From a virus, in the IMG/VR virus record IMGVR_UViG_3300024054_000008, positions 64,001-128,000 of that record: 64,000 nt of DNA, one strand, 5' to 3'. Position 1 is the stretch's first letter. Every line of letters starts with the position of its first letter. The translations under genes were made by a program, and so were the position numbers. Shown here in pieces: positions 11,345 to 43,865 of this stretch. The notes under the pieces were generated by a model, which saw only the letters and a list, made by a program, of their open reading frames with translations, was not told where the DNA came from and ran no database searches.

Positions 11345-12136
11345 TCAGCTCCTACCGCACATAGAATAAAGATCAGACTCGGATATGACTCTAACTCCAT
11401 GTTGTGTTGCTTTCTTCATTTTTGAAGAAGTCGTATTATTGTCATTAGTTACGAGATATGACAACCCTACACCAACAGTTCCCTTCACAATTCCACCAGC
11501 ATCCATTATTATCTTTTCGACAGTTTTTCTTGGTTTAGTTAAAGCACCAGTAATACAAAATGACAAATTAGAAAGTGGGCCAGGAACATCACTAATGATG
11601 TTCAATACAGTTGACAAATCAATAATAATATCTTTCTTATCTTGTATTCCATGGTATATTATGTCAGCTGTCTTATTTCCTATATTTTGAACTCTAGCAA
11701 AATCATCAATGCTGGCTGAAATAACTTTATCAACTGTGTTTAAACCGCAGCTAACTATGTCTGTTGCTGTTGCTATACCAAGTAATTGAATATTCAAAGC
11801 TGATAATAATAATTGTAATGGTACTGATTTTTGGTCATGTAATTGTTTATAACATTTTTCGGCAACTTTTTTACCAGAACAACACTTAGAAATATCATCA
11901 ATACTTAGTCTATATAAATCAGCAATAGACGACACATTTGGGTTATTCTGGTCTGTAAGTTTATTTATAAGGGAATCACCCCAAAACAAAAGTCCAAGCT
12001 TTTCAACCCAAACTGAAACAGCCCCGGATAATTTAGATGGGCATGCTTTTGATCTACAATATAAAAATTGTCCTTCTTGCGTTAAAGATGAATTGCATTC
12101 TGGGCAAAAATCAGGTATTTGAAAGTATTCATTCAC
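11345..12136 (-). CDS. ligA: NAD-dependent DNA ligase C-terminal part (Zn finger, HhH, BRCT) as a stand-alone gene
   Basis: Starts IPDFCPECNS...LYCRSKACP (Zn4), HhH repeats, BRCT FCITGAL...GG.VKGTV...LVT...SSKMKKA...GVRVISE. Confidence 0.9.
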   Translation of the reverse strand: MNEYFQIPDFCPECNSSLTQEGQFLYCRSKACPSKLSGAVSVWVEKLGLLFWGDSLINKLTDQNNPNVSSIADLYRLSIDDISKCCSGKKVAEKCYKQLHDQKSVPLQLLLSALNIQLLGIATATDIVSCGLNTVDKVISASIDDFARVQNIGNKTADIIYHGIQDKKDIIIDLSTVLNIISDVPGPLSNLSFCITGALTKPRKTVEKIIMDAGGIVKGTVGVGLSYLVTNDNNTTSSKMKKATQHGVRVISESDLYSMCGRS

Positions 12137-12749: not shown

Positions 12750-13826
12750 ATGAGTGAAATAACGGAACTGTCAGAAAAATTAAAGAATGCCAGAAATGCT
12801 TATTACAATTTAGATCCGATACTATCAGATTTAGAATATGACGCATTAAAGTCAAGATTACAAGAATTGGACCCGTTAAATGAAGAAATAATATCAATTG
12901 GTGCAGAAATACAATCTAATACGCCATGGGAGAAAATTGCTCATAATATACCAATGGGATCACTCGAAAAGGTAAATTCAAAAAATGAATTTTTTGAATG
13001 GTGCTCAAACACAAAGTCTAAAGAATTTCTTATTACACACAAAATCGATGGTTCAAGTTTAGAAGTGATATATGAACACGGAAAACTTACTAAATGTTTA
13101 TCAAGAGGTGATGGTTACGAAGGCGAAAATATAACAATAAATGCCATCAAGATACCAAATGTGCCAAGGATTATAAATGCACATGAAGACATAACAGTCC
13201 GTGGTGAAGTGGTTATGTTAAAATCAATTTTCAAAGAAAAATATTCAGATGAATATGCAAATCCAAGAAACACAGCGGCTGGAAAATTAAGAGATAAGAA
13301 AAACAAAGGTGAAGATTGTAAAAACCTTCATTTCTTTGCATATACGATGTTTGGGCCAAAATTAAATACAGAAGCAGAGCAATTCAAAACACTATCAAAT
13401 TTAGGATTTGATACACCAAATGTTAATGTTGGTGATATTGATATGATGATTCAAACATTTGAATCAATTAACAGAGAAAATATACCATATGAAATAGATG
13501 GAATGGTAATAAGAATAAATGATTTACAACATCAGGCATCAATGGGTGAAAAAAACATGAGACCGCTTGGCCAAATTGCTTGGAAATTTGATCCAGCAAC
13601 AAGCGTGTCAACAGTTGTTAACATTAAATGGCAAGTTGGACCGTCTGGCAGAGTTTCACCTGTGGCAGTTGTAAAACCAATAAATATAGGTGGAGTTGAG
13701 ATAACAAATATTTCTTTACACAATTTATCCATGTTTAAAGATTTGAGTCTTTACAAAAATTGCAAAGTTCTCATATCAAAAAGGAATGATTTAATACCAT
13801 TCATCGAAAAGCGCATTGATGATTAA
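12750..13826 (+). CDS. ligA: NAD-dependent DNA ligase N-terminal part (Ia, adenylation, OB)
   Basis: YYNLDPILSDLEYD (Ia), KIDG adenylation motif, SRGDG..GE, VRGEV, ANPRN.AAG, IDGMVI, AWKF, WQVGPSGRVSPVA; ends RNDLIP (motif VI). Confidence 0.95.
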   Translation: MSEITELSEKLKNARNAYYNLDPILSDLEYDALKSRLQELDPLNEEIISIGAEIQSNTPWEKIAHNIPMGSLEKVNSKNEFFEWCSNTKSKEFLITHKIDGSSLEVIYEHGKLTKCLSRGDGYEGENITINAIKIPNVPRIINAHEDITVRGEVVMLKSIFKEKYSDEYANPRNTAAGKLRDKKNKGEDCKNLHFFAYTMFGPKLNTEAEQFKTLSNLGFDTPNVNVGDIDMMIQTFESINRENIPYEIDGMVIRINDLQHQASMGEKNMRPLGQIAWKFDPATSVSTVVNIKWQVGPSGRVSPVAVVKPINIGGVEITNISLHNLSMFKDLSLYKNCKVLISKRNDLIPFIEKRIDD

Positions 13827-14189: not shown

Positions 14190-17100
14190 CTAAGAACATC
14201 CACTTGTGGACCCACACGATTTACACAAATAACAACTACCATTTCTAACTGTCAATGACCCGCATGTTGTACATGGCGGTCCACTAAAATCTCTCTTATT
14301 ATTTTGTTCAATTTGGGTAATAGGCGCAATAGATTCACTATTCTTTGAGATTGAAGCCGCTGGTTGTGAATCTGGTTCTTCGAGTCTATAAGCTATGCCA
14401 GTTACTTCACCACTATAATAACGAATATCAAGATATTTCATTAAATAATCATATAGACTCTTAGCAAAACGAATTTTTGGGTTCCTTGTCATACCAGCCG
14501 GTTCAAATCTAGTATCGACAAAACTGCGTATGAGTTTCTCAAGTGGCACCCCATATTGAAGCGCAATCGAAAGAAGTTGAGTGTAGCCGTCAATCAATCC
14601 TGATATGGTAGAACCAGGCTTACCCAATTTCAAAAATACTTCACCAAGTTTTCCATCCGGATATTCATTCATTTGTATATAACCTTTATATCCGTCAATT
14701 TCAAATCGATGACGGTGTCCGCTTATATCCTCTGGAAGACGCCTTCGTTGTTGTATTGGTGATGGACCAGAATCAGAAAACACAATTGCTCCGTTTTGTT
14801 CACCAACTCGTTCTTTTGTAGCAAGTGGCTGTGATAATTTCGAACCATCTCTGTATACAGATACACATTTCAAACCAAGTTTCCATGATTCCATATAAAT
14901 GTCTGATATATCTTGCGGTGTAGCACTATTTGGTAAATTGACAGTTTTGCTTTGAGCACAAGTAATTAACGGCTGTATAGCAGCCATCATTGTTATATGT
15001 GCCATTGGATCTAAACATCTACTTGAATCACCAGATGGCATTGCACAATCAAATACATGCAAATGTTCATTCTTGAATTCTGGCGCACCCTCTATACAGT
15101 CATTATCTTCTATATATTTAGATATGACAGCGGTTTCTTCATCGGTATAACCTAAAGCTCTCAAACCATCCTTTGTGGCCTGATTAACGAGTTTTAACAC
15201 GCCACCGCCAACTAATGTCTTGTAACTAACTAAAGAAAACGCTGGTTCTATTCCAGTCGTATTCATACCCATCAAGAATGACACAGTCCCAAGCGGGGCT
15301 TGAAGACTTGCTTGAGAAATTGAATACCCATATTTTTTACCAAGACGTATTGTTTCTTCCCAAACTTCTGCACTCTTACTAACAATATCATCACCAAGTG
15401 GGTCAGAGGATAGAGACCACCTTCTCAAAATATCATCATCAGCCCGTTGATGTTTTTCCATTATTGAAAGCATATCTTCACAATTTTTTTCAAAGTCAGC
15501 AAACGTTCCAATTCTTGCGGCTAATTGTGCTGATACCTGATAAGCTAGACCAGTCATTAAACTAGCCATTCTTGCAGCAATAACTCTTCCTTCATTCGAA
15601 TCATAACTATAGCCTTGGCTCATAATCAATGAACCAAGGTCACCATAATTTAATCCAATCGGGCGCAGTTTATGTGAATTTTTTGTAATTAAATCGGTCG
15701 GATAATCAGCTTTTTCAATAATTGAATTTTGTGAAATCACAAAAACACGTACAGCTTGTTTAAATTTCTCAAAATTAAAAACACCACCATCAAAAAATTT
15801 TGTCAAATTCAAAGCACACAAATTGCACGCAGTGTTGTCAATATGCGCAAATTCGCTACACTGTGGAATTCGTACACCTTCAGCTATAATTGTGTGGGTC
15901 GTGAATTCGGTCATATTGTAAGTCAACTCGACACGTCCAGTATCATCAACAGATGCTACGCTGTCGTGCCACACGTCATGAATTGGATCAGAATGACCAT
16001 CCGGAAGAAAATCATCCAATTGAGCCTGCTTGCGATCGGACAAAAGACCGCCAATTTCTTTCATGCCATCACGCAATTTCCTGAGAGAATGCCCATAAAC
16101 AGCCAACTCGTGAAGCGTCCGTTTCGAATCGTACGTACAAACCTCGCCAGAAGCTGATGTATATGTAAACTTCCCGGACCTAGAAGCAGAATTTCTATCC
16201 TGCATTATGGTCGATTTGATGCCCATATTAAGCAAAATCGCCTGGACATCCTGAAGTAATCCAAGGCTCATACTCGAAAGCCTTAATTCTCTCGTCGGAA
16301 TGTTATCGCCGTGACCTTTCGCTGACATACGAAAGGTCCCATCGGCTGATATAAGACCAGACAGGAATGCAAGTTGATTCAGACGAGGCGATTCAAACAC
16401 ACCAGGTTGTATCCGCTTGTTATAAGATCTAGATCCAGCAGGGCAAGCAATAGCCTCAATGGATCGAAAGAGACCAATACGACGAATTCTCATATAATCA
16501 GGTGATTCACCAATAGACCCACTCTGAGTTTTTAGTGAAAATGGAATTTCCTGTTTATGCAAAAAAGACGAAATCTTCGATAGAATGTCCTTGTCATGCT
16601 TTCCGAAACACATTCCGATTTCGCCATGTTGGAAATCAGACTTCCATCCTTTTTCGGTGTGTTTGCGAGAATGACGTACAGTCTCTGTCATCCACCCATC
16701 GCCAACAACAAACCCAGCAATCTTGAACCATTCAACAGAATCAGAAAGACCACAGTCGAAATTCCCAAAAGAACCTTCAGCGCACTGAATATCAACCTGG
16801 TCTCCTACCACCAATTCGGCCGCCGGCTTCTTTGTTCCATCTGAAAGCAAAAAATTATGATTCGGAGTAACTACAAGTTCTCTTCCGGACTTGAACTTCA
16901 CAGACAAAAGCGGATTTTCACCAGTCGGGAAGACAACAGCTGGTCTCATCTCAACACGGTCACCAAGATGAACGGCTACTTTCACATCTCCGTCAAAGAT
17001 GCGTTCATAAAGGTCGGCGATTTGAATAAGTCCAAATTCGGTTGCAATTTTCGTCTCGGCAGCAAAACACGGATTCGTTGATCGTATTCTTCCACTGTTT

Positions 17101-18206
17101 GGAACAGTATGCCATTTATTTAATGTTGTACTAAATTGGACGCCAGGGTCAGCACATAACCAAGCAGCTTCAGATATTTCTTTCCACAATTCTTTTGCTT
17201 TGTAAGTCTTAACTGGTTTGTCGGAGCAATCTAACGTCGTCCAGTCATCGTCATTCAAAACTGCCTGCATAAATTCATCAGAAATGCTGACTGAATGATT
17301 AGCATTCTGATATAAAACATTCTTATATGCACCATTTGGATCATCATAATCTCTACTGTATCCACATTTCAAAATCAAATCATGCGCACGTTTTTCTTCT
17401 ACAGCTTTGGACTTAATAAAACCTGGTCTACCGTCTTTTGTTTCCAAAATATCAGGATGGTCAATATCCAAAACAACCATTTTTGCAGCATTCCGGCAAG
17501 AACCTCCAGATTTCATAGCTTGTGCATATTGATCAAGACCGCGCATCCAAGCAAGCGGTCCACTCACATAAGCACCGCTTGATAACTTTTCATAAGAACT
17601 TCTTAAACTAGAAAGATTAGCACCAGACCCAGAACCGCCAGCAAATATAATTGCTTCTGATTTTTGAAACTCCATAATGGAATCTAATGTATCGTCAACA
17701 CCGGATATAAAACATGCAGAGGCAGCTTGCTTTCTGTCTGGTATTCCTAAATTAAACCAAACCGGAGAGTTAAAAGCCCCGAGTTGGTGAAGAAGTGCCC
17801 AAATTAATTCTTCTTCGTAAATCTTTGCGTCAAGTTCAGTATTAAAATAGCCCTGTTCATCTGCCCATTTTCTCAATGTCTTTGCAACACGCAAAAAGAC
17901 TTGTTTAACAGATGATTCTTTCGTTTCACCAACATACCTGAAGTATTTACTTGCAACTATATTTGTGCAATTTTGCTCCCACCAATCTGGAACTTCAACA
18001 TTTTTTTGCTCAAAAATAACCTTTCCATCTGAATTTTTTATGCAAGCGTCAACAAATTTCCATTTGATCTCATCAAATGGATGGATGTTGTCTTTAGTAA
18101 AAACTCTGGACCAGCGCCCTATATCTTCAGCAATTTTTGATTTACCATTCGATTCTTCACGAATTGGAATAACATTATCAATTACCGCTGTTCCGAGACT
18201 TGACAT
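14190..18206 (-). CDS. nrdJ: Class II (B12-dependent) ribonucleotide reductase with intein; C-terminal TSCPD and Zn-ribbon
   Basis: FNSPVWFN, SACFI, GGGSG-like GGSGSG, TNPC..E active-site loop interrupted by an intein, NLCALNL, IGLNYGDLG, APLGT, SKTVN, YRDGSK, terminal CTTCG...CYLCKSCG. Ends TAG TAG. Confidence 0.95.
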   Translation of the reverse strand: MSSLGTAVIDNVIPIREESNGKSKIAEDIGRWSRVFTKDNIHPFDEIKWKFVDACIKNSDGKVIFEQKNVEVPDWWEQNCTNIVASKYFRYVGETKESSVKQVFLRVAKTLRKWADEQGYFNTELDAKIYEEELIWALLHQLGAFNSPVWFNLGIPDRKQAASACFISGVDDTLDSIMEFQKSEAIIFAGGSGSGANLSSLRSSYEKLSSGAYVSGPLAWMRGLDQYAQAMKSGGSCRNAAKMVVLDIDHPDILETKDGRPGFIKSKAVEEKRAHDLILKCGYSRDYDDPNGAYKNVLYQNANHSVSISDEFMQAVLNDDDWTTLDCSDKPVKTYKAKELWKEISEAAWLCADPGVQFSTTLNKWHTVPNSGRIRSTNPCFAAETKIATEFGLIQIADLYERIFDGDVKVAVHLGDRVEMRPAVVFPTGENPLLSVKFKSGRELVVTPNHNFLLSDGTKKPAAELVVGDQVDIQCAEGSFGNFDCGLSDSVEWFKIAGFVVGDGWMTETVRHSRKHTEKGWKSDFQHGEIGMCFGKHDKDILSKISSFLHKQEIPFSLKTQSGSIGESPDYMRIRRIGLFRSIEAIACPAGSRSYNKRIQPGVFESPRLNQLAFLSGLISADGTFRMSAKGHGDNIPTRELRLSSMSLGLLQDVQAILLNMGIKSTIMQDRNSASRSGKFTYTSASGEVCTYDSKRTLHELAVYGHSLRKLRDGMKEIGGLLSDRKQAQLDDFLPDGHSDPIHDVWHDSVASVDDTGRVELTYNMTEFTTHTIIAEGVRIPQCSEFAHIDNTACNLCALNLTKFFDGGVFNFEKFKQAVRVFVISQNSIIEKADYPTDLITKNSHKLRPIGLNYGDLGSLIMSQGYSYDSNEGRVIAARMASLMTGLAYQVSAQLAARIGTFADFEKNCEDMLSIMEKHQRADDDILRRWSLSSDPLGDDIVSKSAEVWEETIRLGKKYGYSISQASLQAPLGTVSFLMGMNTTGIEPAFSLVSYKTLVGGGVLKLVNQATKDGLRALGYTDEETAVISKYIEDNDCIEGAPEFKNEHLHVFDCAMPSGDSSRCLDPMAHITMMAAIQPLITCAQSKTVNLPNSATPQDISDIYMESWKLGLKCVSVYRDGSKLSQPLATKERVGEQNGAIVFSDSGPSPIQQRRRLPEDISGHRHRFEIDGYKGYIQMNEYPDGKLGEVFLKLGKPGSTISGLIDGYTQLLSIALQYGVPLEKLIRSFVDTRFEPAGMTRNPKIRFAKSLYDYLMKYLDIRYYSGEVTGIAYRLEEPDSQPAASISKNSESIAPITQIEQNNKRDFSGPPCTTCGSLTVRNGSCYLCKSCGSTSGCS
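15861..17069 (-). mobile_element. Intein (403 aa) with LAGLIDADG homing endonuclease, at the RNR NP|C site
   Basis: STNP|CFAAETKI (Cys1, codon 17069), block B TPNH, LAGLIDADG-like IAGFVVGDG and LSGLISADG, ends GVRIPQ|CSEF. Visibly GC-richer than the flanks. Confidence 0.93.
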
Positions 18207-19017
18207 TCTTAATTTCCTCCGACAACCTTAGCAATCCGAGTTCCAAATCAACAAAAGCCGAATGATTACCTTTTCTTAGTTTTAGATCGATTGATTTAAA
18301 AAAATTAATCTCATTAATTAAAAAATCACGATTCAATTTAATGTCAGAATCAAATTGAAAGATTTCTACGAGCTTGTTTAATAACGGATAAATGACACTA
18401 GCATGTGAATTTGATTTCTTCATTTTGTCGACAAAAGCTGAAACAGATTTTGTCTCACCACCAAACACAAGATCAATTAAAAGAAATGGGCTGAAATCAA
18501 TTGATGAACACATCACTGATTTTGCCATTTCGGGTGAAATCATTTGCGACTCATGATCAGCTACAACAGAAAGTTTCTCTATCTCAGAAGAAAGTTTACG
18601 AAGACATGTTCCATGGTTCACAAAAAGAGCACCAACAACACGGTTTAGATTTATTTTACGACGTTCACCTTCATCAAGAATCCACTTAATGTAATCGTTT
18701 TTATACTTGTTGTATTTTAATTTTTGAATGTCAATCGTTTTAGTCGCTCTTTTGCTGTTTAATTTCTTGTCTTCTTTTGACAAAACAATCAACAAACTGT
18801 TATTAATTGGCAATTCAGGTATTCTATCGGAATTTCTTATCAAGAATGCTGTTCTTTTATCAGATAAATAACACTGCGACAATTCTGTGTATTTAAGTTC
18901 ATCATCTGGAAAATCAAATTTTAAGATTTCGTCGGCTAAGAATCCATCAGTATATTCATAAGCAGCCCTTTCTTTCAGAAATTCATCATCACCATTTATG
19001 ATAATTAAATCCGACAA
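18178..19017 (-). CDS. holA: DNA polymerase III delta (HolA)-like subunit
   Basis: LIIINGDDEFL N-terminus, WILDE..RRKI, L.SEIEKL, F.LID pattern of the delta subunit. Confidence 0.7.
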   Translation of the reverse strand: MSDLIIINGDDEFLKERAAYEYTDGFLADEILKFDFPDDELKYTELSQCYLSDKRTAFLIRNSDRIPELPINNSLLIVLSKEDKKLNSKRATKTIDIQKLKYNKYKNDYIKWILDEGERRKINLNRVVGALFVNHGTCLRKLSSEIEKLSVVADHESQMISPEMAKSVMCSSIDFSPFLLIDLVFGGETKSVSAFVDKMKKSNSHASVIYPLLNKLVEIFQFDSDIKLNRDFLINEINFFKSIDLKLRKGNHSAFVDLELGLLRLSEEIKNVKSRNSGN

Positions 19018-19028
19018 TGCTATTGACG

Positions 19029-19820
19029 TTACATCAAATCACACACCAACGAAACCCAATGCGATTCGATGCTAGCGTTCGTTTTAATCAAACTAGAAGC
19101 AAACAACAAAACCTTTTCAATATTATCAGAAAATTCAGGTTTAAAATCCAAACTTTTAACAGCTTTTGAACATATATGTGCTATGGCTTCTCTGTATGGT
19201 GCATAAGTTTTTTTGCAAAAAGAAATAGCTTCAGGCATTTCAACCCTTGAAGGTTTATTTGTTATTAATTTTCTCAAAATAACAAAAAAATTTCTGAGTC
19301 TTTCATCACCATAAACAATTTCATATAACCCTGGTCTGCCATCACAAACATTTATTGAAAAGTCGTCGACAACTGACTTAGAAGCAAATTTAAAAATTTC
19401 ATCTTTGTCTAAAATGCTCCATTTTATTTCTTTTCTGATTCTAGATGAAAATGCGCTAGATAGTAAACCAGTATCGTGGCATATTAAAATAAATATTGAT
19501 TCTGACGACATGTCTTCAAAAGTTTTGAGACACGCATCTTGCGCTGGCAAACTTAATTTATCAACGTCATTTATAAGTATTATTCTAGTTTCACTCTCTA
19601 AAGGTGAAAATTTAGAAAATTCTAAAGCATTTTTGATTTCATTTATTGACGTATCAGAAATGAAAATATCAGAATTAGAAAAATTTGATGTTACAAAATC
19701 TTTCGAAAATGAAAATTTACCCAGACCTCTCTGGCCCGTTAAAGCCACCACTTTTGTCGGGCTCTCCAACAGAATCTTTATTAGTTGATTCTGAGCCTCT
19801 AAGTTGCCGAAAATTTCCAT
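19029..19820 (-). CDS. holB: DNA polymerase III delta-prime (HolB)-like subunit
   Basis: IFGN..A, degenerate Walker A GQRGLGK, IILINDVDKL..PAQDACLK.FE, LL.A..SR. Confidence 0.75.
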   Translation of the reverse strand: MEIFGNLEAQNQLIKILLESPTKVVALTGQRGLGKFSFSKDFVTSNFSNSDIFISDTSINEIKNALEFSKFSPLESETRIILINDVDKLSLPAQDACLKTFEDMSSESIFILICHDTGLLSSAFSSRIRKEIKWSILDKDEIFKFASKSVVDDFSINVCDGRPGLYEIVYGDERLRNFFVILRKLITNKPSRVEMPEAISFCKKTYAPYREAIAHICSKAVKSLDFKPEFSDNIEKVLLFASSLIKTNASIESHWVSLVCDLM

Positions 19821-19974
19821 CTATTTCCACAAATTCAATTTTTATGATGAATGACTTTCCACAATTTGAACATACAACTGCGTTAACGTTACTAAGTTGT
19901 TGTAACGAACTCTGGCATTCTGGGCAAAATAAAATCATTAATACTGAAACACACCACCGACGCCAACTGTCCAC
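19717..19974 (-). CDS. Small Zn-ribbon protein
   Basis: CPEC...CSNCG; true start probably MILFCPEC. Confidence 0.5.
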   Translation of the reverse strand: MDSWRRWCVSVLMILFCPECQSSLQQLSNVNAVVCSNCGKSFIIKIEFVEIDGNFRQLRGSESTNKDSVGEPDKSGGFNGPERSG

Positions 19975-20138
19975 GTGTATCTACATTTCTCGCACGTGTA
20001 CCTTTGCTCCGTAGAACCGTCTTGATTATGTTTCTTAACAAACATACCATCGCAAGTTTGACCAGCGGTTAATCTATCAGAACCGCGGCGACATTTCATC
20101 AAAATCGGTTTATCTTTTATTTTATTTTCAACTGTCAT
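19938..20138 (-). CDS. Small Zn-ribbon protein
   Basis: KC...C...YTCEKCRYTW, TFIIS/RPB9-like C-terminal ribbon pattern. Confidence 0.5.
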   Translation of the reverse strand: MTVENKIKDKPILMKCRRGSDRLTAGQTCDGMFVKKHNQDGSTEQRYTCEKCRYTWTVGVGGVFQY

Positions 20139-20482
20139 GGTCTGTTCCGATATGCTTCACTAACCATACCATGCGCTCGTTTGATCAAATCTTCTATTTT
20201 GTCAGAAGAAAACAAAGGAACAGATAAATTCAAAGCTATATTCTTACAAATATCAAAATCTTCTCTCAATAACAAAAACTGTAACTCTTGACGTTGAGGT
20301 ACATGAACACTTACTATTTCTCTGCCATTCAAATTGTTTGAAATAGTTATGTGATTGTTTAATTTTCCAAGAGCTAAATAAACAATCATCAATGGGAACG
20401 TTTTAACAGCATAATCAAATGTAGCTGGTCTTACAAGTCTGCCGTTTCGTTTCTTGTTTGAATAAGAACCGTCGAGTGTCAA
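20135..20482 (-). CDS. Hypothetical protein
   Basis: Operonic ORF; no motif. Confidence 0.55.
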   Translation of the reverse strand: MTLDGSYSNKKRNGRLVRPATFDYAVKTFPLMIVYLALGKLNNHITISNNLNGREIVSVHVPQRQELQFLLLREDFDICKNIALNLSVPLFSSDKIEDLIKRAHGMVSEAYRNRP

Positions 20483-21633
20483 ATCGCCTCTTCAACACTT
20501 TCAGAACCTTTAGATTTTGGTTCCATAGGTTGAATTGCATCAACGTTAACACCTTGTTTTTTTAGTTTTTTCTTCAAATTATCGTATGATCTTTGATCAA
20601 GTGGAGATAACGGACCTTGTAGCTCCATCCATTTGAATCTAGCAAATTTTCTCTCATCAATGCCGCGTTGATATAGTTCACGCTCTTCAATTTTCTTACG
20701 TTCAATTTTTTCAATTTCACGCGGTGAGACATCAGAAAAAAATGACTCATACAAAGTCTCATAGTCAACCATCGGAAGTTTATTTTCTATAAAATTATGT
20801 ATTTCACTCAAAAGTTGTTTTCTCAAATCACCAACAAATCCAGACCATCGTTTTTCGTTAGCTTTATATAACTCTGGGTGCTTTTCTTTCAGAGTTGAAG
20901 CCTGACCCATATTTTCTTTAATGTCTGACCCAAAACTTCCGACTTCATCAATAAAAATCAAATCGAACAATTTACTGGTGTTTTCTGACAAAGAAGACCT
21001 TAAAGCCGGTATGTAATCACCTATTTGATCATAAAATTCTTTAACAGCGGCTCTTTCGTCTAAAGCCTTACTTATGTCATTTTCATCAATATCCGGAATA
21101 CGACCTTCACCACCCTCTGGAACGCCCCCACCTTCCGGCCTTCTGCCAAATGCTTCCTGTATCCCAGTCTCTTTTTCTTTTTTTCTAAATTTTTCCTTTG
21201 ATTTCGTTATACTGCGACGACGTATATTGCTATATATAGCACCAAGAGCCTCTTTCCAAGAATCAAAATCTTTTCTAAAATTCCATGGCTCAGCAGTTTT
21301 TCGCTTTATAGTTCTGATTTCGCCGTCTTCTGTCTCTTCCTCTACAAATTCAGTCCCAGTTGAAATGTATGTAAGAAAATCTTGAACAGAATCCATAGCG
21401 TCAGCTTCATTATACTGAAGCTGTTTCTTAGCTATGGCTAACATCTTTCCACCAACTTGGTGTGGATGAGCGTCAACTGTTTGATCTGGATATTGTTTTT
21501 TTAAAATATCAATAATCGCCCTACCGAAGCCTTCTTCAATATCAAGAGCTAGCCTGATTATTGTGTAAGCTAGCCTAACCCCAGGAGTTATATTAAATGA
21601 TACGGATTTTGCTATAGAATCAAAATTTGGCAT
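20479..21633 (-). CDS. Hypothetical protein, possibly a divergent sigma70-like factor
   Basis: ADAMDSVQDFLTYI and FDSWKEALGAIYSNIRRRSI resemble ECF region 2; LRSSLSENTSKLFDLIF resembles the start of region 4. Weak similarity. Confidence 0.4.
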   Translation of the reverse strand: MPNFDSIAKSVSFNITPGVRLAYTIIRLALDIEEGFGRAIIDILKKQYPDQTVDAHPHQVGGKMLAIAKKQLQYNEADAMDSVQDFLTYISTGTEFVEEETEDGEIRTIKRKTAEPWNFRKDFDSWKEALGAIYSNIRRRSITKSKEKFRKKEKETGIQEAFGRRPEGGGVPEGGEGRIPDIDENDISKALDERAAVKEFYDQIGDYIPALRSSLSENTSKLFDLIFIDEVGSFGSDIKENMGQASTLKEKHPELYKANEKRWSGFVGDLRKQLLSEIHNFIENKLPMVDYETLYESFFSDVSPREIEKIERKKIEERELYQRGIDERKFARFKWMELQGPLSPLDQRSYDNLKKKLKKQGVNVDAIQPMEPKSKGSESVEEAI

Positions 21634-21657
21634 TTATAGAAATTATTTAATAACAAT

Positions 21658-23040
21658 TTAAGAACTAATTTGTTTGTGCTTTGCCCTATTCAATGCAGCT
21701 ACAACTCTATCAATCGGATAAGAAAGTCTTGACGATATGTCTTCCGGACTCATTCCGATTGAATTTAAAGAATTAAAAAAATCGGTCCTGGCTTTGACTG
21801 GCGCTCCAAACAATTCATCACCTAATAATTTGTGAACATCACAACCATTCCTATTGCAAGCTTCTTGAGCCAACCTATTTATGTGTTCATCGCTGTGATT
21901 ATAATTTCTAAGTTTATTAATGGCTGATGTTCTTAATTTGTTGACACGATTTGATGATACACCAATACTAGATGCATATTTTCTTATTGGAATATCAGAA
22001 ACATCTATTGCAACCAAAACGTTATGTTCATCTTGGCTAAGGTTTGCCCTATCAACACAATTGATCAAATCAATGCGTTTCTCCAACCTTTCATAATCCA
22101 TCATTGATGATGGATCTCTAAAAGATCTCGTTATACTATCAGGACCATTTTCGTCATCACCTTTTTCTATAGATACAATTTCATCATCTGAATACTCAGG
22201 CGATACACCATTATTGTAAATCATTATGCTCGTGTCATCTGACCGAGACATTCTCTTGAAATCGTTTACAACTTCATTGTCAATTACCATTTGAGCATAT
22301 TTTAGTAATCCAGCTGTTACATCGTGATTAGTCTTCCTCATGATATATCTTGGAACTGATTTAACAAGATTTGACCTTCTCCAGTCACGAAGAAACAACT
22401 TTAATTGATTGTCATTCCAACGCAATTTTAACACTTCTTCTGCATTGGAAAGATCAGTCCAATTGTGGGCCAAACTTAATCCTTTAGAATAAAGTAACTC
22501 TTTGCCATGTTTGCATCCAGTACAAGAATGGCGATCATCTGAACAAACATGTTCAGTCATTTCAGAAGGAAGCAAACGGCCTTGCCTATACAAAGACTGC
22601 AAAGAGCCAAAGTCAACATCTGAATAACCAAGAAGACGTAAAACACGAGCAGTGTCTATCGTATGGCCTTGTGGTGAATAATAATACCTAGAATAGTCAA
22701 ATTTTGCATATCTGAGAATATCAGATATCATCCACAAAGAATTTTGGTCAGATCTCTTTCCTTCAACAGGCGAAACATATGATATATACGTTAATGGTGC
22801 CCCTCCAAGAATTGATTCAGCTTGAGTACGATCAACAAGTTCGTCAGTTAAATGTTTAAAAAACCACCTACCAATGAAGTCTTTGCTCAAAAGACGCAAA
22901 CGAACATTTTGGACGGTGTCCATCATTCGTTCTTTGTCACGCTTAAAATGTCTAGAAACTTTTGCGTGAGTCCACGCGTAATATTGTTTGAGAAATTCTT
23001 GGTTCGTCGGGATTTGAATCGGGAACATCTTTACCTCCAT
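21658..23040 (-). CDS. Sigma70-family (ECF-like) factor with a large region-2 insertion and an extra C-terminal helical domain
   Basis: Region 2.1-2.2 (YYAWTHAKVSR..MDTVQNVRLRL), region 2.4 (LKYAQMVIDNEVVNDFKR), region 4 HTH (LSQDEHNVL...IRKYASSIGVSSNRVNKLRTSAINKLR). Confidence 0.65.
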   Translation of the reverse strand: MEVKMFPIQIPTNQEFLKQYYAWTHAKVSRHFKRDKERMMDTVQNVRLRLLSKDFIGRWFFKHLTDELVDRTQAESILGGAPLTYISYVSPVEGKRSDQNSLWMISDILRYAKFDYSRYYYSPQGHTIDTARVLRLLGYSDVDFGSLQSLYRQGRLLPSEMTEHVCSDDRHSCTGCKHGKELLYSKGLSLAHNWTDLSNAEEVLKLRWNDNQLKLFLRDWRRSNLVKSVPRYIMRKTNHDVTAGLLKYAQMVIDNEVVNDFKRMSRSDDTSIMIYNNGVSPEYSDDEIVSIEKGDDENGPDSITRSFRDPSSMMDYERLEKRIDLINCVDRANLSQDEHNVLVAIDVSDIPIRKYASSIGVSSNRVNKLRTSAINKLRNYNHSDEHINRLAQEACNRNGCDVHKLLGDELFGAPVKARTDFFNSLNSIGMSPEDISSRLSYPIDRVVAALNRAKHKQISS

Positions 23041-24475: not shown

Positions 24476-25195
24476 GTGAAATACTACAGTACACTAAACA
24501 AAAAAGAAAAATTTTTGTTGGAAGAAAAATTAGAAGAAATTCTAAACAAAAGATTCGGAAAATCAAAAGAAAATGAACAATTGAAACAAATTTTGTCAAA
24601 AATGATAGAAAAAAAGTCAATACCGGTTGAATTAATAGAAAAAATACCGAAGAAGCCGGAAGAAGCAGGAAGAACAAAATTCGATCAAATTTATGAAGCA
24701 GCAATAGAATTGGCTTTTCCAAGTTATGGCAAAAACACGTTATCAAATTTAACAAAAATAAACGACAACAAAATAAAGATATGGAGGATAGTAGCACCGA
24801 ACAAATACAAAATACCACACGTTTTGATCAGAGCAGAATCAATACAAGAAGCGTTTGCTTTAGCATGCGATTACGTTTGTAGAGCTTCTCTACGTTTATT
24901 AGGTGAAATACCAGCGGATTTACAAATAAGAGTAATATTTATGTCTGAAAAAGCTGTTAGAAGATATTTGGGCATAAAATGGGCAAATAGATTGAATAAA
25001 AGAAAAAAATTGAATTTGATGGAACGTGAATTCTCAAATGATGAAATACAAAAAGCGACTGAAGTTGCTTTGAATGGACCAAAAGACGAAACTTATAGGA
25101 TAGTAAAATATATGGAAGAAAAAGATTTATTAAAAATAAAGAAAACATTTAACAGAATAAGAATTTCACCAATAGAAAAAAAATCAACAAAATAA
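24476..25195 (+). CDS. Hypothetical basic protein
   Basis: 239 aa Lys-rich ORF upstream of the PurZ-like gene. Confidence 0.55.
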   Translation: MKYYSTLNKKEKFLLEEKLEEILNKRFGKSKENEQLKQILSKMIEKKSIPVELIEKIPKKPEEAGRTKFDQIYEAAIELAFPSYGKNTLSNLTKINDNKIKIWRIVAPNKYKIPHVLIRAESIQEAFALACDYVCRASLRLLGEIPADLQIRVIFMSEKAVRRYLGIKWANRLNKRKKLNLMEREFSNDEIQKATEVALNGPKDETYRIVKYMEEKDLLKIKKTFNRIRISPIEKKSTK

Positions 25196-25231
25196 TCAAA
25201 CTTCAGATGTATTGTTTCGTACGAGGAACCA

Positions 25232-26431
25232 ATGATAAAAGGCAGATTTAACGTATTGTTGGACCAAGCTTGGGGTTCGAGCGGGAAAGGCTTGATGTCA
25301 ACATGGCTTGCAGATCACTTTAACATCAACCACGTATCTTCAGCTAATCATCCCAATGCCGGACACTCGGCAATAATTGATGACATAAAATTCGTTGCTA
25401 AGGCCATACCAACAGCCGCAATTTTAAAAAAAGCAAAAGGCGTTGATATAAAGTGTTTCATATCACCAGGTTCTGGTTTCACTTGGAAACAGTTGTGTAA
25501 AGAATGGATTGAAACAGAAAAACCAGAAATTTTCATACACTCTCGTGCATCAATTGTGACCGAAGAACACGCAAAGCGCGAACGTGAAGGTGCAGAATCA
25601 ACAAAGCATATTGCATCAACAATGCAGGGCACAGCAACGGCAATAGCAGACAAAATTTTAAGAAAAAAAGATGTTAAATTGGCAGGAACATTGCCTTTAA
25701 ATGAATTTATCGAACACGAATTTAAATCAAATTCAGAATTCAAAATTTTCAGCGCTTATCTTGATGAATTTTACGAAAAAGTTCGTATAATTGACGCGAT
25801 GGAATTCAGAAATTTGACTCATTCAATAATCAAATCAGGAAATCAATGGTTACACGAAGGAAGCCAAGGATACGCTTTATCAATTGATCACGGATCTCAC
25901 TATCCACAATCAACATCAAGAAACTGTTCATTGCAAGCAGCAATGGACTACATGGCTATACCGCCCCAAATGGTTGGAGATGTTTATTTGAATTTAAGAT
26001 CATTTCCGATAAGGGTAGGAAATGTTATAGAGGATGGGGTTCAAAAAGGATACTCTGGTGATTTCTATCCAGATTCAAAAGAATTAACCTGGGAAGAGGT
26101 CGGAAAAAACGCTGGCATGCCAGAAGAAGAAATACAAAAATTAAGAGAACGCGAGTTGACAACAGTTACAAAAAGACTTAGAAGAGTTGCTACATTTAGT
26201 TGGATCGGACTTCGAGATGCTGTTCAAACAAACGGAGTGACTAAGATCTGTGTGAATTTTATCCAATACATAAATTGGAAAGATGCTGGTCTAAAAGGCG
26301 GAAAAGAAGCGTTCGATCGACTTTCAAGTGAAAGTCGGTCTTTTATTTCAAAAGTCGAAGAAGTTTCTGATTTACCAGTCGTTCTTGTTGGAACTGGACC
26401 GCGACACGAAGACATCATTTCTATCTTGTAA
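25232..26431 (+). CDS. purZ: PurZ-type 2-aminodeoxyadenylosuccinate synthetase (PurA paralog)
   Basis: P-loop WGSSGKG (Ser where PurA has the catalytic Asp of GDEGKG), NAGH, EGSQG, FPIRVGN, GYSG.FYPDS.E, TTVTKRLRRV.TFS, NFIQY in place of PurA TKLD. Confidence 0.8.
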   Translation: MIKGRFNVLLDQAWGSSGKGLMSTWLADHFNINHVSSANHPNAGHSAIIDDIKFVAKAIPTAAILKKAKGVDIKCFISPGSGFTWKQLCKEWIETEKPEIFIHSRASIVTEEHAKREREGAESTKHIASTMQGTATAIADKILRKKDVKLAGTLPLNEFIEHEFKSNSEFKIFSAYLDEFYEKVRIIDAMEFRNLTHSIIKSGNQWLHEGSQGYALSIDHGSHYPQSTSRNCSLQAAMDYMAIPPQMVGDVYLNLRSFPIRVGNVIEDGVQKGYSGDFYPDSKELTWEEVGKNAGMPEEEIQKLRERELTTVTKRLRRVATFSWIGLRDAVQTNGVTKICVNFIQYINWKDAGLKGGKEAFDRLSSESRSFISKVEEVSDLPVVLVGTGPRHEDIISIL

Positions 26432-27863
26432 ACAGAAACTTTAGTTTCTCTTTCCCAAAAACTTTCTTGTAGTTATGTTTTTCAGCATAACTACTTTCTT
26501 TCATCTTGCACGACCTTGCATGGTTATATAATGTCTTCTTGTGCATCATCCATCCATTAGAATCAACATAAACATAGTCAGGTTTAACAGTTGAAACTAG
26601 AACCCAATTGGCGGCTTTGTATATTGTACCAACATGCCCATACGTTGTGTCAGCAAATGAAACAACGGCTTTTACATTTTTGAATTCATTCAAAAACATT
26701 TTGGTACATCTAGACAAAAACCAAGTTGCAAAATTTTTCTTATGACGATTTGGGCTGATGCAAAAACGGTCAAGTTCGAAAATTTCTTTGGTTGTATATC
26801 CAGAAGATAATGCAGTTTCCTTCCTAGAAAGCGGAGAAAACTTGCAAACAGCTATTAATTCACTTTCTAAATATGCACCAATCACAAATTTTGGCTTTTT
26901 GCCTTCTTGAGCATAATGCCACGTCCTTAAAAAGATCTCCGAATCCGATATTTGACAGATTCTAACTTTAACAGACCTGATATCGAAATCATCTAAACAC
27001 TGGATTGATAATTTTAACTGATTTTTTAGTTTTTCAGCAACCTTTCCAGTCGACAATAATTCATTCTCCCAGATATAGATTAGTTTAGAATTTGGAAAAG
27101 ATTTCATTAAATAAGACAGCTTGGCTTTATCTCTCTTAGAGTTATGCGGGAGGTTATGCCAATATTCACCTTGAACATCGATAAATGCGTCATGTTTTGG
27201 TAAATAAAAATCAAAATTATACGGACCAACTGCCCTTTCCGATTCATATTCTATATTGAGATTGTTCAAAATGTTAGCAAATATTTTCTCAGGTCTAGAA
27301 CGATTTCCAGATGAATAAAATTTTTCAATACCCTTTGCAATTTTGATTTTATATTCATCATTTTTAAATCTGTTTTTTGCAAGCTCTCTGTGCAAATCTT
27401 TGTATTTTTGTTTATTTACAGCTTTTTTGTGATTCTTTCTAGCCTTCTCTGTGTGCAATGCGTATACTTTCTCTCTCAAATACTTACCGGGGTCAATTTT
27501 GTATTCACTTTTGTTTCGTTCAGAAACTAATTTTTTATGTTCTTCAGATTTAAATAATTTGTTGATTCTATCAATTTGACATTTTCGGTACGATTTGTTC
27601 TTCCACGCCTGTTTTGACTGCTTAGACCTTTGCAATTTTGCTTCGTCGGTATTAAATGTGCACTTCATACATGAATAAATGCCATTTTTCTTTTTGTTTT
27701 GTAAATAATTATAATAGGTAACTATTGATTCTCTATCACATAACTCACATTTCGCCCAAGTTTTTCTTTTTTGTTTGCTAGACCCGAACCAAATTGTCGG
27801 TGGAATTTTATATCCAAAATCATCTAAATTTTTATTTTCAAGTAACACATACAATCGTAACAC
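26421..27863 (-). CDS. Fusion: Zn-finger/basic repeats + Vsr/DUF559-like endonuclease + Mom-like GNAT domain
   Basis: CELC..CMKC; GPYNFDFYL...IDVQGEYWH; HY...IGAY...LIAVCKF...ELDRFC...VVSFAD...HVGTIYKAANW. Confidence 0.75.
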   Translation of the reverse strand: MLRLYVLLENKNLDDFGYKIPPTIWFGSSKQKRKTWAKCELCDRESIVTYYNYLQNKKKNGIYSCMKCTFNTDEAKLQRSKQSKQAWKNKSYRKCQIDRINKLFKSEEHKKLVSERNKSEYKIDPGKYLREKVYALHTEKARKNHKKAVNKQKYKDLHRELAKNRFKNDEYKIKIAKGIEKFYSSGNRSRPEKIFANILNNLNIEYESERAVGPYNFDFYLPKHDAFIDVQGEYWHNLPHNSKRDKAKLSYLMKSFPNSKLIYIWENELLSTGKVAEKLKNQLKLSIQCLDDFDIRSVKVRICQISDSEIFLRTWHYAQEGKKPKFVIGAYLESELIAVCKFSPLSRKETALSSGYTTKEIFELDRFCISPNRHKKNFATWFLSRCTKMFLNEFKNVKAVVSFADTTYGHVGTIYKAANWVLVSTVKPDYVYVDSNGWMMHKKTLYNHARSCKMKESSYAEKHNYKKVFGKEKLKFLFTR

Positions 27864-31387: not shown

Positions 31388-33332
31388 GATTCGTCCTGTC
31401 CAAAACCAAACATTACCGGACAACAAATCAAATGCAAAATATGTTGAATTTATTTGTGATTGCGGCAACACATTCAAGCGAAGATGGAGGTCATTCAAAG
31501 ATGGTAACAACAAATCTTGTGGAAAATGCAATATATTTCGGATACATAATACAAAACAAATCACATTCGGCAAACTTAAGTTATTACAACAAATAACAAA
31601 AGATAATAAATCATCTGATCTAATTAAGGCAATATGTAACTGTGGAACACATAAAACTATTAAAATAAAATCACTGTTAGAAGGTGTTGAAAGTTGTGGT
31701 TGTTCAAGATATAAAGAAATAAAACATCATGAGACAAAACCAATAAACCAATGGAAAGAAGAACTACCAGAATTGGTCATAGACGAATCAACGCCGCAAA
31801 ACCTAAGTAGAAAAAGTTCTCAAGTTTGCAAATTTAAATGTAAATGCGGAAGTGTTTATTCAAAGAGGTTTGAGCATTACAAACCAAATAAGAGTTCTTG
31901 TGGCAAATGCGATGAAATAATAATTAAAAATGGCGACAAAATAAATAATTTTACGTACGTAGGGCACAAACTAAAATTAAAAACTAAGTCGATTAAAAAA
32001 GAACCATTTTTGTGTAAATGTGGAAAAACAAAACTTTTAAGACCTTATGCAGTGTTTCACTTACACCAGAAAATTTGCGGATCATGTTCAATTAAAGACA
32101 AACAATGGTGGGGCACAACAAAGTTCGGAAAAGTTAAAGCATTATATCCAGAAAAAATTGCGAACAAGAAACCAAAAAGCAACGACATGGGTTGGTTTAT
32201 TTGTGATTGTGGACAAAAATTTACGAGAAAAATTTGCATTGTGACAAATGGCAGAAACCAATCTTGCGGAAAATGTAGAAAAGTCTCTGGAAGTTGGTTC
32301 TTCTTAAATAAAGAAAATTTAGAAAAATTAAAATTTCCATTAAAGAAAGAAAATTTTCCGAAAGGTGGCCCGATACCATTATCAGATATAAAATCTAAGA
32401 GCAAAAAAACATTGTTTGAATGTTGGTTATGCAAAAGACGTTATGAATGCGTTGTAACGGACATAATACGAGGAGTTTCATTATCATGCGGATGTTCTTC
32501 AGGATCAATATCAAAAATGAATTTTGAGGTAAATTCATTTTTAAATTCGATCGGAGTCAATTCAGAACTCGAATATGATTTAAACAAATTAAAATATGAC
32601 ATTGCAATTCCAACAAAAAAATTGCTCATAGAAATGCACGGACTAAAATGGCATTCGGAACAAGAATCAAAATCAAGAGATGCGTTAAAATTCAATAATG
32701 CAATAAAAAATAATAACGAATTAATCGTAATATATGAAGACGAATGGGCAAACAAAAATTTGATATTTAAAAATATAATATCTAATCGTCTTGGAATAAA
32801 AAACATTAAAACAGCAAGAGCAAACAAATGCTCAATATTACAAATTGACAACAAAACAATCAATGCATTTTATGAAAAATTTCATTATATAGGTCCAACC
32901 AACTCAAAATATAATTACGGTGCTTTCTTAGATAATGAGTTGGTGGCAGCAATGTCATTTAGGAAACCAACAAGACCAACAAATGCAGAATTTGAACTAT
33001 CACGGATGGCCGGCGATTTTGATATAAAAATTCATGGTATATGGAGTAAATTATTAAGAAAATTCATACAAGACCAAAATCCGAATTCAATAGTAACATA
33101 TTCGGACAATCGATTGTTTTCTGGCAAAACTTACCAAAAAATTGGGTTTAAATTAGACGGACACATAAAACCAGATTATTATTGGGTGTTAAATATGAAA
33201 AGATTCAATAAGTCAGCTCTAAGAAAACCAAAAAACACAACAATTACAGAAACTCAATTAAGAACCTCACAAGGATATAGAAAAATTTGGGATTACGGTA
33301 AAACCAGATGGTTGTGGAAAAAGGAGCTATAA
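31386..33332 (+). CDS. Multi-Zn-finger + PD-(D/E)XK (Hef-like) endonuclease + GNAT-like domain
   Basis: At least 6 CxCG...SCG repeats; KYDIAI...LIEMHGLKWH; FHYIG...GAF..ELVAAMSF...ELSR...IVTYSDNR..SG..Y..IGF. Confidence 0.75.
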   Translation: MIRPVQNQTLPDNKSNAKYVEFICDCGNTFKRRWRSFKDGNNKSCGKCNIFRIHNTKQITFGKLKLLQQITKDNKSSDLIKAICNCGTHKTIKIKSLLEGVESCGCSRYKEIKHHETKPINQWKEELPELVIDESTPQNLSRKSSQVCKFKCKCGSVYSKRFEHYKPNKSSCGKCDEIIIKNGDKINNFTYVGHKLKLKTKSIKKEPFLCKCGKTKLLRPYAVFHLHQKICGSCSIKDKQWWGTTKFGKVKALYPEKIANKKPKSNDMGWFICDCGQKFTRKICIVTNGRNQSCGKCRKVSGSWFFLNKENLEKLKFPLKKENFPKGGPIPLSDIKSKSKKTLFECWLCKRRYECVVTDIIRGVSLSCGCSSGSISKMNFEVNSFLNSIGVNSELEYDLNKLKYDIAIPTKKLLIEMHGLKWHSEQESKSRDALKFNNAIKNNNELIVIYEDEWANKNLIFKNIISNRLGIKNIKTARANKCSILQIDNKTINAFYEKFHYIGPTNSKYNYGAFLDNELVAAMSFRKPTRPTNAEFELSRMAGDFDIKIHGIWSKLLRKFIQDQNPNSIVTYSDNRLFSGKTYQKIGFKLDGHIKPDYYWVLNMKRFNKSALRKPKNTTITETQLRTSQGYRKIWDYGKTRWLWKKEL

Positions 33333-33334
33333 GT

Positions 33335-34687
33335 ATGAACAAAATAGAAGTATTTTGTTTGATGGATGAACACGGTAAGTTCCTTGAACCAGCGATACAA
33401 GCAACAACTCTTGCTAAATATTCAAGATCATCAGAATCTGCAAAAGAAATAGTCAAATCAATATCATTGGAATCGGCTGAAAAATTTCAAGAAAAATGGG
33501 TTGTTGAATATGGTCACAACTCTGTTGCAGAATTGGCGTGCATACCAGTTTGCTTTGAAAATGTATCAATAATAGCATCTAAATTCATAGAATCTTGGCA
33601 AAGACCAGGCTTTTCAGAAAAGAGCACAAGGTATCAAAAATTTAGTATAGACAATTTTGTTACTCCGCCGGGTTGTTCAGACACAATGAAAAGATTCGTT
33701 AAAAAATTTTACGATACATATGAATCTTTACATTCAAAAATGCTAAAACGATGTGCAAAACTAATGGGTTATAATTCAAATGATGAAAAAATTCTGTTAA
33801 AGAATTCTGTTAAAGCAAGAACTTTCGATAATCTAAGATATTTGCTTCCAGCCGGCACTGGAACAAATCTAGCAGCTGTAATCAACATGAGAGATGCAAG
33901 AAATTTGATAACAAGTATGAAAGGACACCAAAATTCTGAATTTAGAGAAATAGGTGATAAAACACAACACGCAATAGAAAAAATATGCCCGGTTCTATTA
34001 CGACACACAGAACCAGACAATTACTCATTAGACACAAAACATCTTGGTGATATAAGTACAAAATTCAAAATAACAAATCCAAATTGGTATGTTGATTTTT
34101 ATGAATCATTTTGTTCGAAAAATGAAAACAGTGAAGAAACACAGAAAAGATTTATGAAGTCAATAAAAGATGTATATGGCATGGATTTTGATACATTTTC
34201 AAAATTCATGGAAGCAAGACCTGAACATAAAGAGATACCAGACTTATTTAAAACGATAAGAATAGCATTCGACATAATGACAGATTATGGATCATTCAGA
34301 GATTTACAAAGACACAGGCGATGTGAACAATTCATAGAACCATTAACTATAAATTATGGTTACATAATACCAGATGACATGTCTGGAACAGATATTGAAG
34401 AATCATATGTACAAGCTATGGAATCGATTAATTCGTATGGCGATGACAAAATTTTACATAGTCAATATTATCAATATATGATACCACTTGGTTATTTACA
34501 TAGGTCAGTCTTTGTTATGGATTTAAAAGAACTATATTACATAGTTGAATTAAGAACAAAACCGCACGGGCATCAATCTTATCGAAAAGTAGCATACGAG
34601 ATGTATGAACTAGCAAAAAACAAATATCCATTATTAATGCAGTGGTGCAGAGCGACACACCCAAGCATAGTTGGTGAACACCTTTGA
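33335..34687 (+). CDS. thyX: Flavin-dependent thymidylate synthase (long, two-domain form)
   Basis: YGHNSVAE, SEKSTRY, ARTFDNLRYLLP, FRDLQRHR, ELRT..GH.SYR. SD AAGGAG before ATG 33335. Confidence 0.88.
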   Translation: MNKIEVFCLMDEHGKFLEPAIQATTLAKYSRSSESAKEIVKSISLESAEKFQEKWVVEYGHNSVAELACIPVCFENVSIIASKFIESWQRPGFSEKSTRYQKFSIDNFVTPPGCSDTMKRFVKKFYDTYESLHSKMLKRCAKLMGYNSNDEKILLKNSVKARTFDNLRYLLPAGTGTNLAAVINMRDARNLITSMKGHQNSEFREIGDKTQHAIEKICPVLLRHTEPDNYSLDTKHLGDISTKFKITNPNWYVDFYESFCSKNENSEETQKRFMKSIKDVYGMDFDTFSKFMEARPEHKEIPDLFKTIRIAFDIMTDYGSFRDLQRHRRCEQFIEPLTINYGYIIPDDMSGTDIEESYVQAMESINSYGDDKILHSQYYQYMIPLGYLHRSVFVMDLKELYYIVELRTKPHGHQSYRKVAYEMYELAKNKYPLLMQWCRATHPSIVGEHL

Positions 34688-43864: not shown

Positions 43865-43865
43865 A

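Follow-up and report, generated by a model that had tools for sequence, protein, structure and literature searches.

A divergent PurZ-type enzyme in a huge-phage contig as a candidate for 2-aminoadenine DNA synthesis

PurZ enzymes divert dGMP towards 2-aminoadenine (Z), the base that stands in for adenine in the DNA of Z phages. The PurZ structures used here for comparison are those of phiVC8, S-2L and SH-Ab 15497 (6fm1/6tnh, 7odx), whose hosts are Vibrio, a cyanobacterium and Acinetobacter, respectively. A 2026 survey in Nucleic Acids Research described seven Z-phage groups among NCBI viruses, equipped either with DatZ, MazZ and DUF550 or with DutZ, DmtZ and DUF5664; the latter set is the one used by phages with PurZ0, and known Z phages depend on their hosts for the PurB step (PMC12884076). 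On the strength of PurZ homology, Z-phage status has by one account already been predicted for more than 2000 viruses (PMC13128860). Here we describe a purZ-type gene at positions 25232–26431 of a 64-kb stretch of viral DNA (the window), which corresponds to bases 64001–128000 of a 182,739-bp IMG/VR contig without terminal repeats (G000). CheckV rates this contig 43% complete, implying a genome of ~425 kb of which ~57% is absent from the contig. Comparison of its sequence with phage and cellular homologues indicates that the gene probably encodes a divergent PurZ, an enzyme that would use dGMP, aspartate and ATP and feed a Z-DNA pathway.

The purZ-type gene and its specificity residues

The gene and its translation signal read as follows.

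25232..26431, + strand: purZ-type gene, 399 aa; an ATG-started open reading frame (ORF); predicted to make an N6-succino-2-amino-2'-deoxyadenylate synthase belonging to a divergent subfamily from huge phages
25222..25226, + strand: ribosome-binding site GAGGA, read from the sequence, 5 nt before the purZ ATG

The N-terminus of the protein aligns from residue 1 with 17 homologues, and every catalytic motif is invariant in an alignment of 18 clade members. A preliminary description of this DNA had pointed to the motifs GSSGKG, YPDS, TTVTK..RR and NFIQY, with Ser where PurA has its catalytic Asp13. All are present in the 399-aa ORF, as GSSGKG at residues 15–20, YPDS at 279–282, TTVTKRLRR at 310–318 and NFIQY at 342–346. 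That the protein is PurZ-like is borne out by homology searches. Pfam PF00709 (Adenylsucc_synt) recovers the adenylosuccinate synthetase fold (E 1e-32), PHROG 1211 (phrog_1211, '2-aminooxy adenylosuccinate synthetase') matches at 9e-53, and the best solved structure is phiVC8 PurZ (6fm1, 3e-29), followed by S-2L PurZ (3e-26) and Pyrococcus horikoshii PurA (1e-25). Between the Z-DNA pathway and the new chemistry that the preliminary description had offered, the pathway is the best reading, and new chemistry is not needed for anything seen.

Specificity positions separate phage from cellular enzymes. At the position of PurA Asp13 (phiVC8 S14), occupied by S16 in the window protein, Ser is found in 58 of 58 phage rows and Asp in 15 of 15 cellular PurA rows; substrate selectivity is reported to be lost when this Ser of PurZ is mutated to Asp (bioRxiv 10.1101/2025.10.22.683976). 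T310 and W287 (phiVC8 T262 and W252) are conserved in all phage PurZ and PurZ0 and occur in no cellular PurA, short archaeal or long, the T262 position being Gly in the cellular enzymes. Further residues are common to PurZ and not shared by PurZ0: S17, which is Glu in both PurZ0 and PurA; Y279; and F343/Y346 of NFIQY (NFxxY), which correspond to phiVC8 F295/Y298 and are replaced by Met/Gln in PurZ0 and by Lys/Val, within T-K-L-D, in PurA. In phiVC8 PurZ, F295 and Y298 hold and stack on the adenine of ATP (bioRxiv 10.1101/2025.10.22.683976). Both PurZ0 and archaeal PurA retain the Glu that follows position 13 as well as the T-x-L-D guanine motif. The window protein has GSSGKG and NFIQY instead of the PurZ0 marks (the Glu of GSEGKG, and T-M-L-D), and Ser16 and NFIQY instead of the PurA marks (catalytic Asp13, and the (T/N)KxD guanine motif). 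W14 aligns with phiVC8 F12, also aromatic; with Trp in PurA as well, the position has no discriminating value.

Set against each known group, the window protein resembles the PurZ of phiVC8, S-2L and SH-Ab 15497 in fold, in Ser at Asp13, Thr at T262, Trp at W252 and NFxxY, in the TTVTK-x-x-RR aspartate loop and, in the best trees, in the side on which it falls. It departs from them by insertions of ~35 aa (residues 150–190), 9 aa (264–272) and ~13 aa (293–305) and by a longer C-terminal part. PurZ0 of Arthrobacter, Gordonia and Microbacterium phages (Wayne, 7vf6) shares Ser13, T262 and W252 with it, and both are predicted dGMP users, but PurZ0 resembles archaeal PurA in the Glu that follows the Ser and in T-M-L-D. 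Short archaeal PurA (P. horikoshii 2d7u/5k7x; NF003295) is similar in size, fold and the Arg considered below, whereas it has GDEGKG (with Asp13), Gly at T262, Ala at W252 and T-x-L-D, and is separated from all the phage enzymes by a branch with support of 99. Judged by these residues, the window protein is a member of the phage PurZ/PurZ0 group and bears the residues of ATP-using PurZ.

The preliminary description had also noted Arg at the position equivalent to E. coli R303 and taken it as intermediate towards PurA/PurZ0. The Arg itself is real (R315, invariant in the clade), but the intermediate reading does not hold, since the majority of PurZ-side sequences have Arg here: it occupies the position in 47 of 63 metagenomic PurZ-side representatives and in the cultured ZP6 and BCSR129. 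Cellular PurA also has Arg, and PurZ0 has Lys. From the aligned enzymes, Arg is best seen as the ancestral state that most PurZ enzymes keep, with no sign of an intermediate enzyme.

For the phylogeny of PurA, PurZ and PurZ0 that had been proposed as a check, we assembled cultured PurZ (phiVC8, S-2L, SH-Ab 15497, PMBT28, PSA28, ZP6, BCSR129 and BpsS-140), cultured and metagenomic PurZ0 (Wayne, Archimedes, Johann, Hiyaa and others), metagenomic representatives, and 4 short archaeal and 11 long cellular PurA sequences. The cellular sequences were found in genomes by a degenerate DNA pattern; a homologue search with Wayne PurZ0 as query returned PurZ0 phages only and no archaeal PurA. When the tree was rooted on long PurA, the phage enzymes formed one clade (support 99 in the Shimodaira–Hasegawa-like approximate likelihood-ratio test, SH-aLRT) next to short archaeal PurA. 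PurZ0 formed a clade with support of 100, and a PurZ-side clade (SH-aLRT 96) joined all cultured PurZ with the huge-phage clade of the window protein (99). A tree without archaeal PurA gave the same picture, with the window protein on the PurZ side (SH-aLRT 90). The best trees place the window protein on the PurZ side. The deep branching order among the window clade, other PurZ and PurZ0 is not firm; the derived residues speak more clearly.

Structure prediction was less discriminating than the residues. An AlphaFold2 (AF2) model of the protein is only moderate (predicted local distance difference test score, pLDDT, 66; predicted template-modelling score 0.71), and its active-site loops fall below a pLDDT of 50. 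Foldseek gave target TM-scores of 0.72–0.75 for archaeal PurA, P. horikoshii first, and 0.69–0.70 for PurZ, a ranking that cannot tell the two apart; when the N-terminal third alone was compared with the PDB, P. horikoshii PurA was not among the matches listed. Several purZ homologues of the clade (P0121, P0122, P0124, P0129 and P0131) are 747–1197 aa long, with the PurZ match broken into 2–4 stretches, probably by inteins or other insertions.

Candidate pathway genes in the complete relatives

Homologues of the window protein number more than 1100; among them, more than 120 clusters at 60–69% identity lie on contigs of up to 436 kb. Eight purZ-carrying IMG/VR records have direct terminal repeats at their ends and measure 356–436 kb; by comparison, all records with purZ that were found in the phage collection are at most 83 kb, apart from a bacterial sequence misfiled as phage. 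The closest terminal-repeat record (G001, 426,960 bp; PurZ 68% identical to that of the window) was examined whole. G000 is collinear with G001 at ~166–337 kb, in inverted orientation and with a few blocks translocated. Accessory genes were counted in 18 purZ-carrying huge-phage records, 5 of which are complete close relatives.

A YfbR-like HD gene occurs in 7 of the 18 records: every one of the 5 complete close relatives, plus 2 that are partial. Among PHROGs it matches the DatZ family phrog_7076 most strongly (1.5e-18 to 1.5e-20), far above the dNMP (deoxynucleoside monophosphate) phosphatase family, and phiVC8 DatZ has the same top family. Touching it is a gene for a conserved MazG-like protein with EXXE and E..D helices. 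This protein matches phrog_229 at 1e-8, falls just under the cut-off of PF12643 and has weak PDB profile matches to MazG-type and DCTPP1 enzymes; its profile was found in exactly the same 7 records as the HD gene. The pairing recalls DatZ and MazZ of S-2L, although the MazG-like protein is linked to them by a weak profile match only. In known Z phages purZ, mazZ and datZ form a tight cluster in a 40-kb phage; here, in genomes of ~400 kb, the HD and MazG-like genes, at 47.9–49.0 kb in G001, lie ~200 kb from purZ. By their family matches, the HD protein would act as a DatZ-like enzyme and its neighbour as a MazZ-like one.

Every complete close relative encodes a family A polymerase of ~950 aa with an exonuclease domain, ~10 kb from the HD/MazG-like genes, and it is the only DNA polymerase detectable there. 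The preliminary description had spoken of a Pol III-like replisome, a reading that is not supported: of such a replisome there are clamp-loader-type subunits only, and searches of G000 and 4 complete relatives detected no Pol III alpha (PF07733) and no PolB. The relatives' polymerase is 21–25% identical to DpoZ, the generic Pol I model scores best, and the nearest phage-collection record is an uncultured 485-kb phage. By sequence it is of the same class as DpoZ but is not a DpoZ orthologue.

PurB is encoded in 6 of the 18 purZ-carrying records (G001, G004, G006, G010, G011 and G013). The score exceeds the NCBI equivalog cut-off in 5 of the 18, with G006 just under it. The G001 gene is the following.

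G001 82045-83466: PurB (adenylosuccinate lyase); NCBI equivalog model, 474 bits

G001 also carries a dCMP deaminase gene. NDT was absent from G000 and 4 complete relatives, and dUTPase occurred only in G005; in contrast to PurZ0 phages, no dUTPase-type or NDT-type gene goes with the window clade. DUF550 (PF04447) was likewise not found in G000 and 4 complete relatives, a weak negative since control genomes were also silent. We further considered whether avoidance of palindromes and restriction sites could serve as an indirect sign of Z. GATC is avoided ~30-fold by phiVC8, a proven Z phage, and the patterns of G000 and G001 are mixed, so these statistics are uninformative on Z.

A 5-kb block of RecA and 5 other genes (window 42680-48070, - strand) matches G001 52–59 kb, where it adjoins the HD/MazG-like genes. 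In G000 this block is relocated to the region matching G001 247–249 kb, without the HD/MazG-like genes.

Genes around purZ

The neighbourhood of purZ was compared across 23 close relatives. The features of the window concerned are these.

14190..18206, - strand: class II (B12) ribonucleotide reductase (RNR) with LAGLIDADG intein; PF02867 1.8e-107, PF08471, PF14528, PF14890
18178..23040, - strand: conserved replication block beside purZ, including proteins without family; genes in 14–16 of 23 close relatives
19029-19820: clamp-loader subunit within the 18178..23040 block; PF13177 1.4e-10, phrog_5846
24476..25195, + strand: 239-aa protein with no family match; co-directional, 36 nt upstream of purZ
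26421..27863, - strand: fusion of a Mom domain with a Vsr/HNH-like nuclease; PF25680 89 bits, phrog_559
33308..34687, + strand: ThyX (FAD-dependent thymidylate synthase); PF02511 4.6e-31
G000 4276-4779, 10034-10561, 32934-33422 and 61204-61665: further Mom-domain matches

purZ sits in a conserved nucleotide-supply and replication module with class II RNR, the clamp loader and ThyX. Besides its clamp-loader subunits, the module takes in a primase of the DnaG type, a helicase of the RecD2 type, a split NAD-dependent ligase and RecA. ThyX lies within 10 kb of purZ in 15 of the 23 close relatives; only two small ORFs part thyX from purZ in G001, and the same gap in the window holds ~7 kb of variable insertions. 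The best-conserved neighbour, present in 18 of 23, is the 239-aa protein, which is 45% identical to its G001 counterpart. Pfam, PHROGs and NCBIfam held no match for it, and an Atlas search gave nothing usable. Of the nucleotide-supply genes named in the preliminary description, ThyX and the class II RNR are indeed present. Its dNMP kinase could not be recovered: there was no Pfam match to such a kinase among 40 window proteins, and no Walker-A protein shorter than 330 aa.

The Mom-nuclease gene lies downstream of purZ and converges on it, the two overlapping by 11 nt at the purZ stop. We rejected it as a functional PurZ partner, as it is a multi-copy and variably placed nuclease fusion, with 5 copies each in G000 and G001, none in G002 or G003, and a copy near purZ in 4 of the 23 close relatives. 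These fusions behave like mobile homing-type elements, and this one is among several insertions that part purZ from thyX here. An 881-aa HEAT-repeat protein (27885-30530, - strand) also lies between the two genes and has no counterpart near purZ in 42 related loci.

Three further genes of the window have unusual architectures. The class II RNR is 1338 aa long, its barrel domain interrupted by the LAGLIDADG-type intein, and the G001 orthologue has 929 aa. ThyX is unusually long at 459 aa, with the Thy1 domain at residues ~35–230 and the remaining ~230 C-terminal aa without assignment. The NAD-dependent DNA ligase is divided between two divergent genes (11345-12136, - strand, and 12750-13826, + strand), one carrying the adenylation and OB domains and the other the HhH and BRCT domains.

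Competing explanations and a proposed Z-DNA pathway

Several results weigh against a PurZ that feeds a Z-DNA pathway. The NCBIfam PurZ model NF038379 is the top model for the window protein, yet its 179.9 bits do not reach the cut-off of 300 bits, which phiVC8 (397 bits) and Wayne (367 bits) both exceed. We therefore assign the protein to a divergent subfamily that NCBI's rule would not call PurZ. The archaeal PurA model scores close behind (164 bits), and the protein is under every NCBIfam purA cut-off. Identity is 31% to phiVC8 PurZ, 30–31% across the phiVC8, S-2L and SH-Ab 15497 enzymes and ~30% to the assayed PurZ enzymes. Approximately unbiased (AU) tests did not reject joining the wider clade of the window protein to PurZ0 (p 0.34), nor placing that clade outside other PurZ plus PurZ0 (p 0.44); taken alone, the AU test leaves a sister relation with PurZ0 standing.

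The accessory genes raise points of the same kind. In the 183 kb of G000 we found no HD phosphohydrolase, MazG-type, PurB or DNA polymerase gene, nor DUF550, dUTPase or NDT; tblastn with known DatZ, MazZ, DpoZ and PrimPol gave no match, and an HD-protein hidden Markov model run over six frames returned nothing better than E 0.5. The HD/MazG-like pair is also missing from the complete or near-complete purZ records G006–G010 and G014, so the accessory set is not uniform across the wider group; these are more distant huge phages, G006–G009 with PurZ 43% identical. The relatives' HD protein has Tyr20 with Ser or Thr22 and not the specificity pair Trp20/Ile22 of S-2L DatZ, and it falls far under the NCBI 5'-deoxynucleotidase model. 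Their polymerase reaches 51 and 29 bits on the DpoZ models NF038380 and NF038381, which have cut-offs of 500 and 350. For the HD protein, Tyr20-Thr/Ser22 is prevalent among YfbR-like proteins on contigs experimentally enriched for dZ DNA (bioRxiv 10.1101/2025.10.22.683976). For the contig, the gaps say nothing about the phage itself, as over half of its genome is missing. The earlier statement that neither datZ nor mazZ is visible thus holds for G000, but not as a trait of the phage: the contig covers ~43% of the genome, and HD, MazG-like and polymerase genes, the set that had been proposed for a search, all occur in 5 of 5 complete close relatives. By analogy with these, the HD/MazG-like genes may lie in the missing 57%.

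Could the enzyme simply enlarge the purine supply? A PurA-like enzyme acting on IMP or dIMP would, with PurB, raise (d)AMP for a very large AT-rich genome that keeps ordinary adenine in its DNA. Huge phages are rich in nucleotide-metabolism genes (here RNR, ThyX and, in G001, dCMP deaminase), PurB accompanies purZ in about one-third of records as it does PurA in cells, and both the archaeal PurA score and the first Foldseek rank of P. horikoshii PurA lean this way. We nevertheless consider it unlikely. Every clade member has Ser where PurA has its catalytic Asp13, the guanine-binding T-K-L-D is replaced by NFxxY and the Gly at the T262 position by Thr, and all three changes match dGMP- and ATP-using enzymes; the loss of selectivity when PurZ is given Asp in place of this Ser argues in the same direction, and the relatives' HD/MazG-like pair would be left without a role. 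Another thought starts from Arg315, invariant at a position whose E. coli counterpart, R303 of PurA, we take to contact the 2'-OH of IMP. GMP rather than dGMP might then be the substrate, with PurB yielding 2-amino-AMP and the class II RNR, 7 kb from purZ in the same conserved module, reducing the di- or triphosphate to the deoxy form. This ribonucleotide route appears highly improbable to us, as Arg is also commonest among ordinary small PurZ phages, besides ZP6 and BCSR129, and is no mark of another substrate. A MazG-like enzyme converting dGTP to dGMP, as in known Z phages, fits a deoxynucleotide route, and Z ribonucleotides would get into RNA.

A different kind of alternative accepts the chemistry and questions its use: the product might serve partial or local Z incorporation, or act as a modified nucleotide that inhibits or decoys host defence, instead of bulk substitution. 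It draws on G006–G010 and G014, the complete or near-complete purZ huge phages without a recognisable dATP-removing enzyme, given that full replacement is unlikely without dATP removal, judged from published S-2L and SH-Ab 15497 (PMC12884076). The closest complete relatives, by contrast, have the DatZ-like/MazG-like pair, purZ sits in the replication and nucleotide-supply module, and nothing points to a signalling or inhibitor role; we see little prospect for this account. A divergent PurZ that supplies a Z-DNA pathway remains, in our judgement, the probable explanation of the window gene.

In such a pathway, PurZ would phosphorylate O6 of dGMP with ATP, and aspartate would displace the phosphate to give N6-succino-2-amino-2'-deoxyadenylate, abbreviated dSMP. 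PurB, either the host's or the phage-encoded one of about one-third of purZ records, would release fumarate and convert dSMP to 2-amino-2'-deoxyadenylate (dZMP), which kinases would carry on to the triphosphate, dZTP. The MazG-like enzyme would supply dGMP from dGTP, and the DatZ-like HD enzyme would remove dATP. The family A polymerase, with clamp and clamp loader, could then incorporate Z opposite T, yielding virion DNA in which 2-aminoadenine replaces some or all of the adenine.

PurZ chemistry as such is known. The subfamily is divergent, its genomes are ~5 times larger than those of any known Z phage found in the phage collection, the accessory genes look independently recruited and some members have a phage PurB. 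PurZ or diaminopurine in huge or jumbo phages was not reported as a finding in the literature we searched, although these contigs may already be among the more than 2000 viruses with PurZ-based Z predictions (PMC13128860). We tentatively propose, as a possibility close to but short of an even chance, that a clade of 350–440-kb phages replaces adenine by 2-aminoadenine with a gene set put together separately from those already known, comprising a divergent PurZ, an HD dATPase of the Tyr20/Ser22 type, a new MazG-like enzyme, a family A polymerase of a third Z-tolerant lineage and, in several members, the phage's own PurB. If true, these Z genomes would be the largest by a wide margin, lifting the size ceiling of natural ZTGC genomes about fivefold, and where PurB is present both steps from dGMP to dZMP would be wholly phage-encoded. 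The Tyr20/Ser22 DatZ type, the MazG-like enzyme, the large Z-accepting family A polymerase and the phage PurB would become new pathway candidates, and the finding would matter for the restriction, sequencing and binning of huge-phage DNA.

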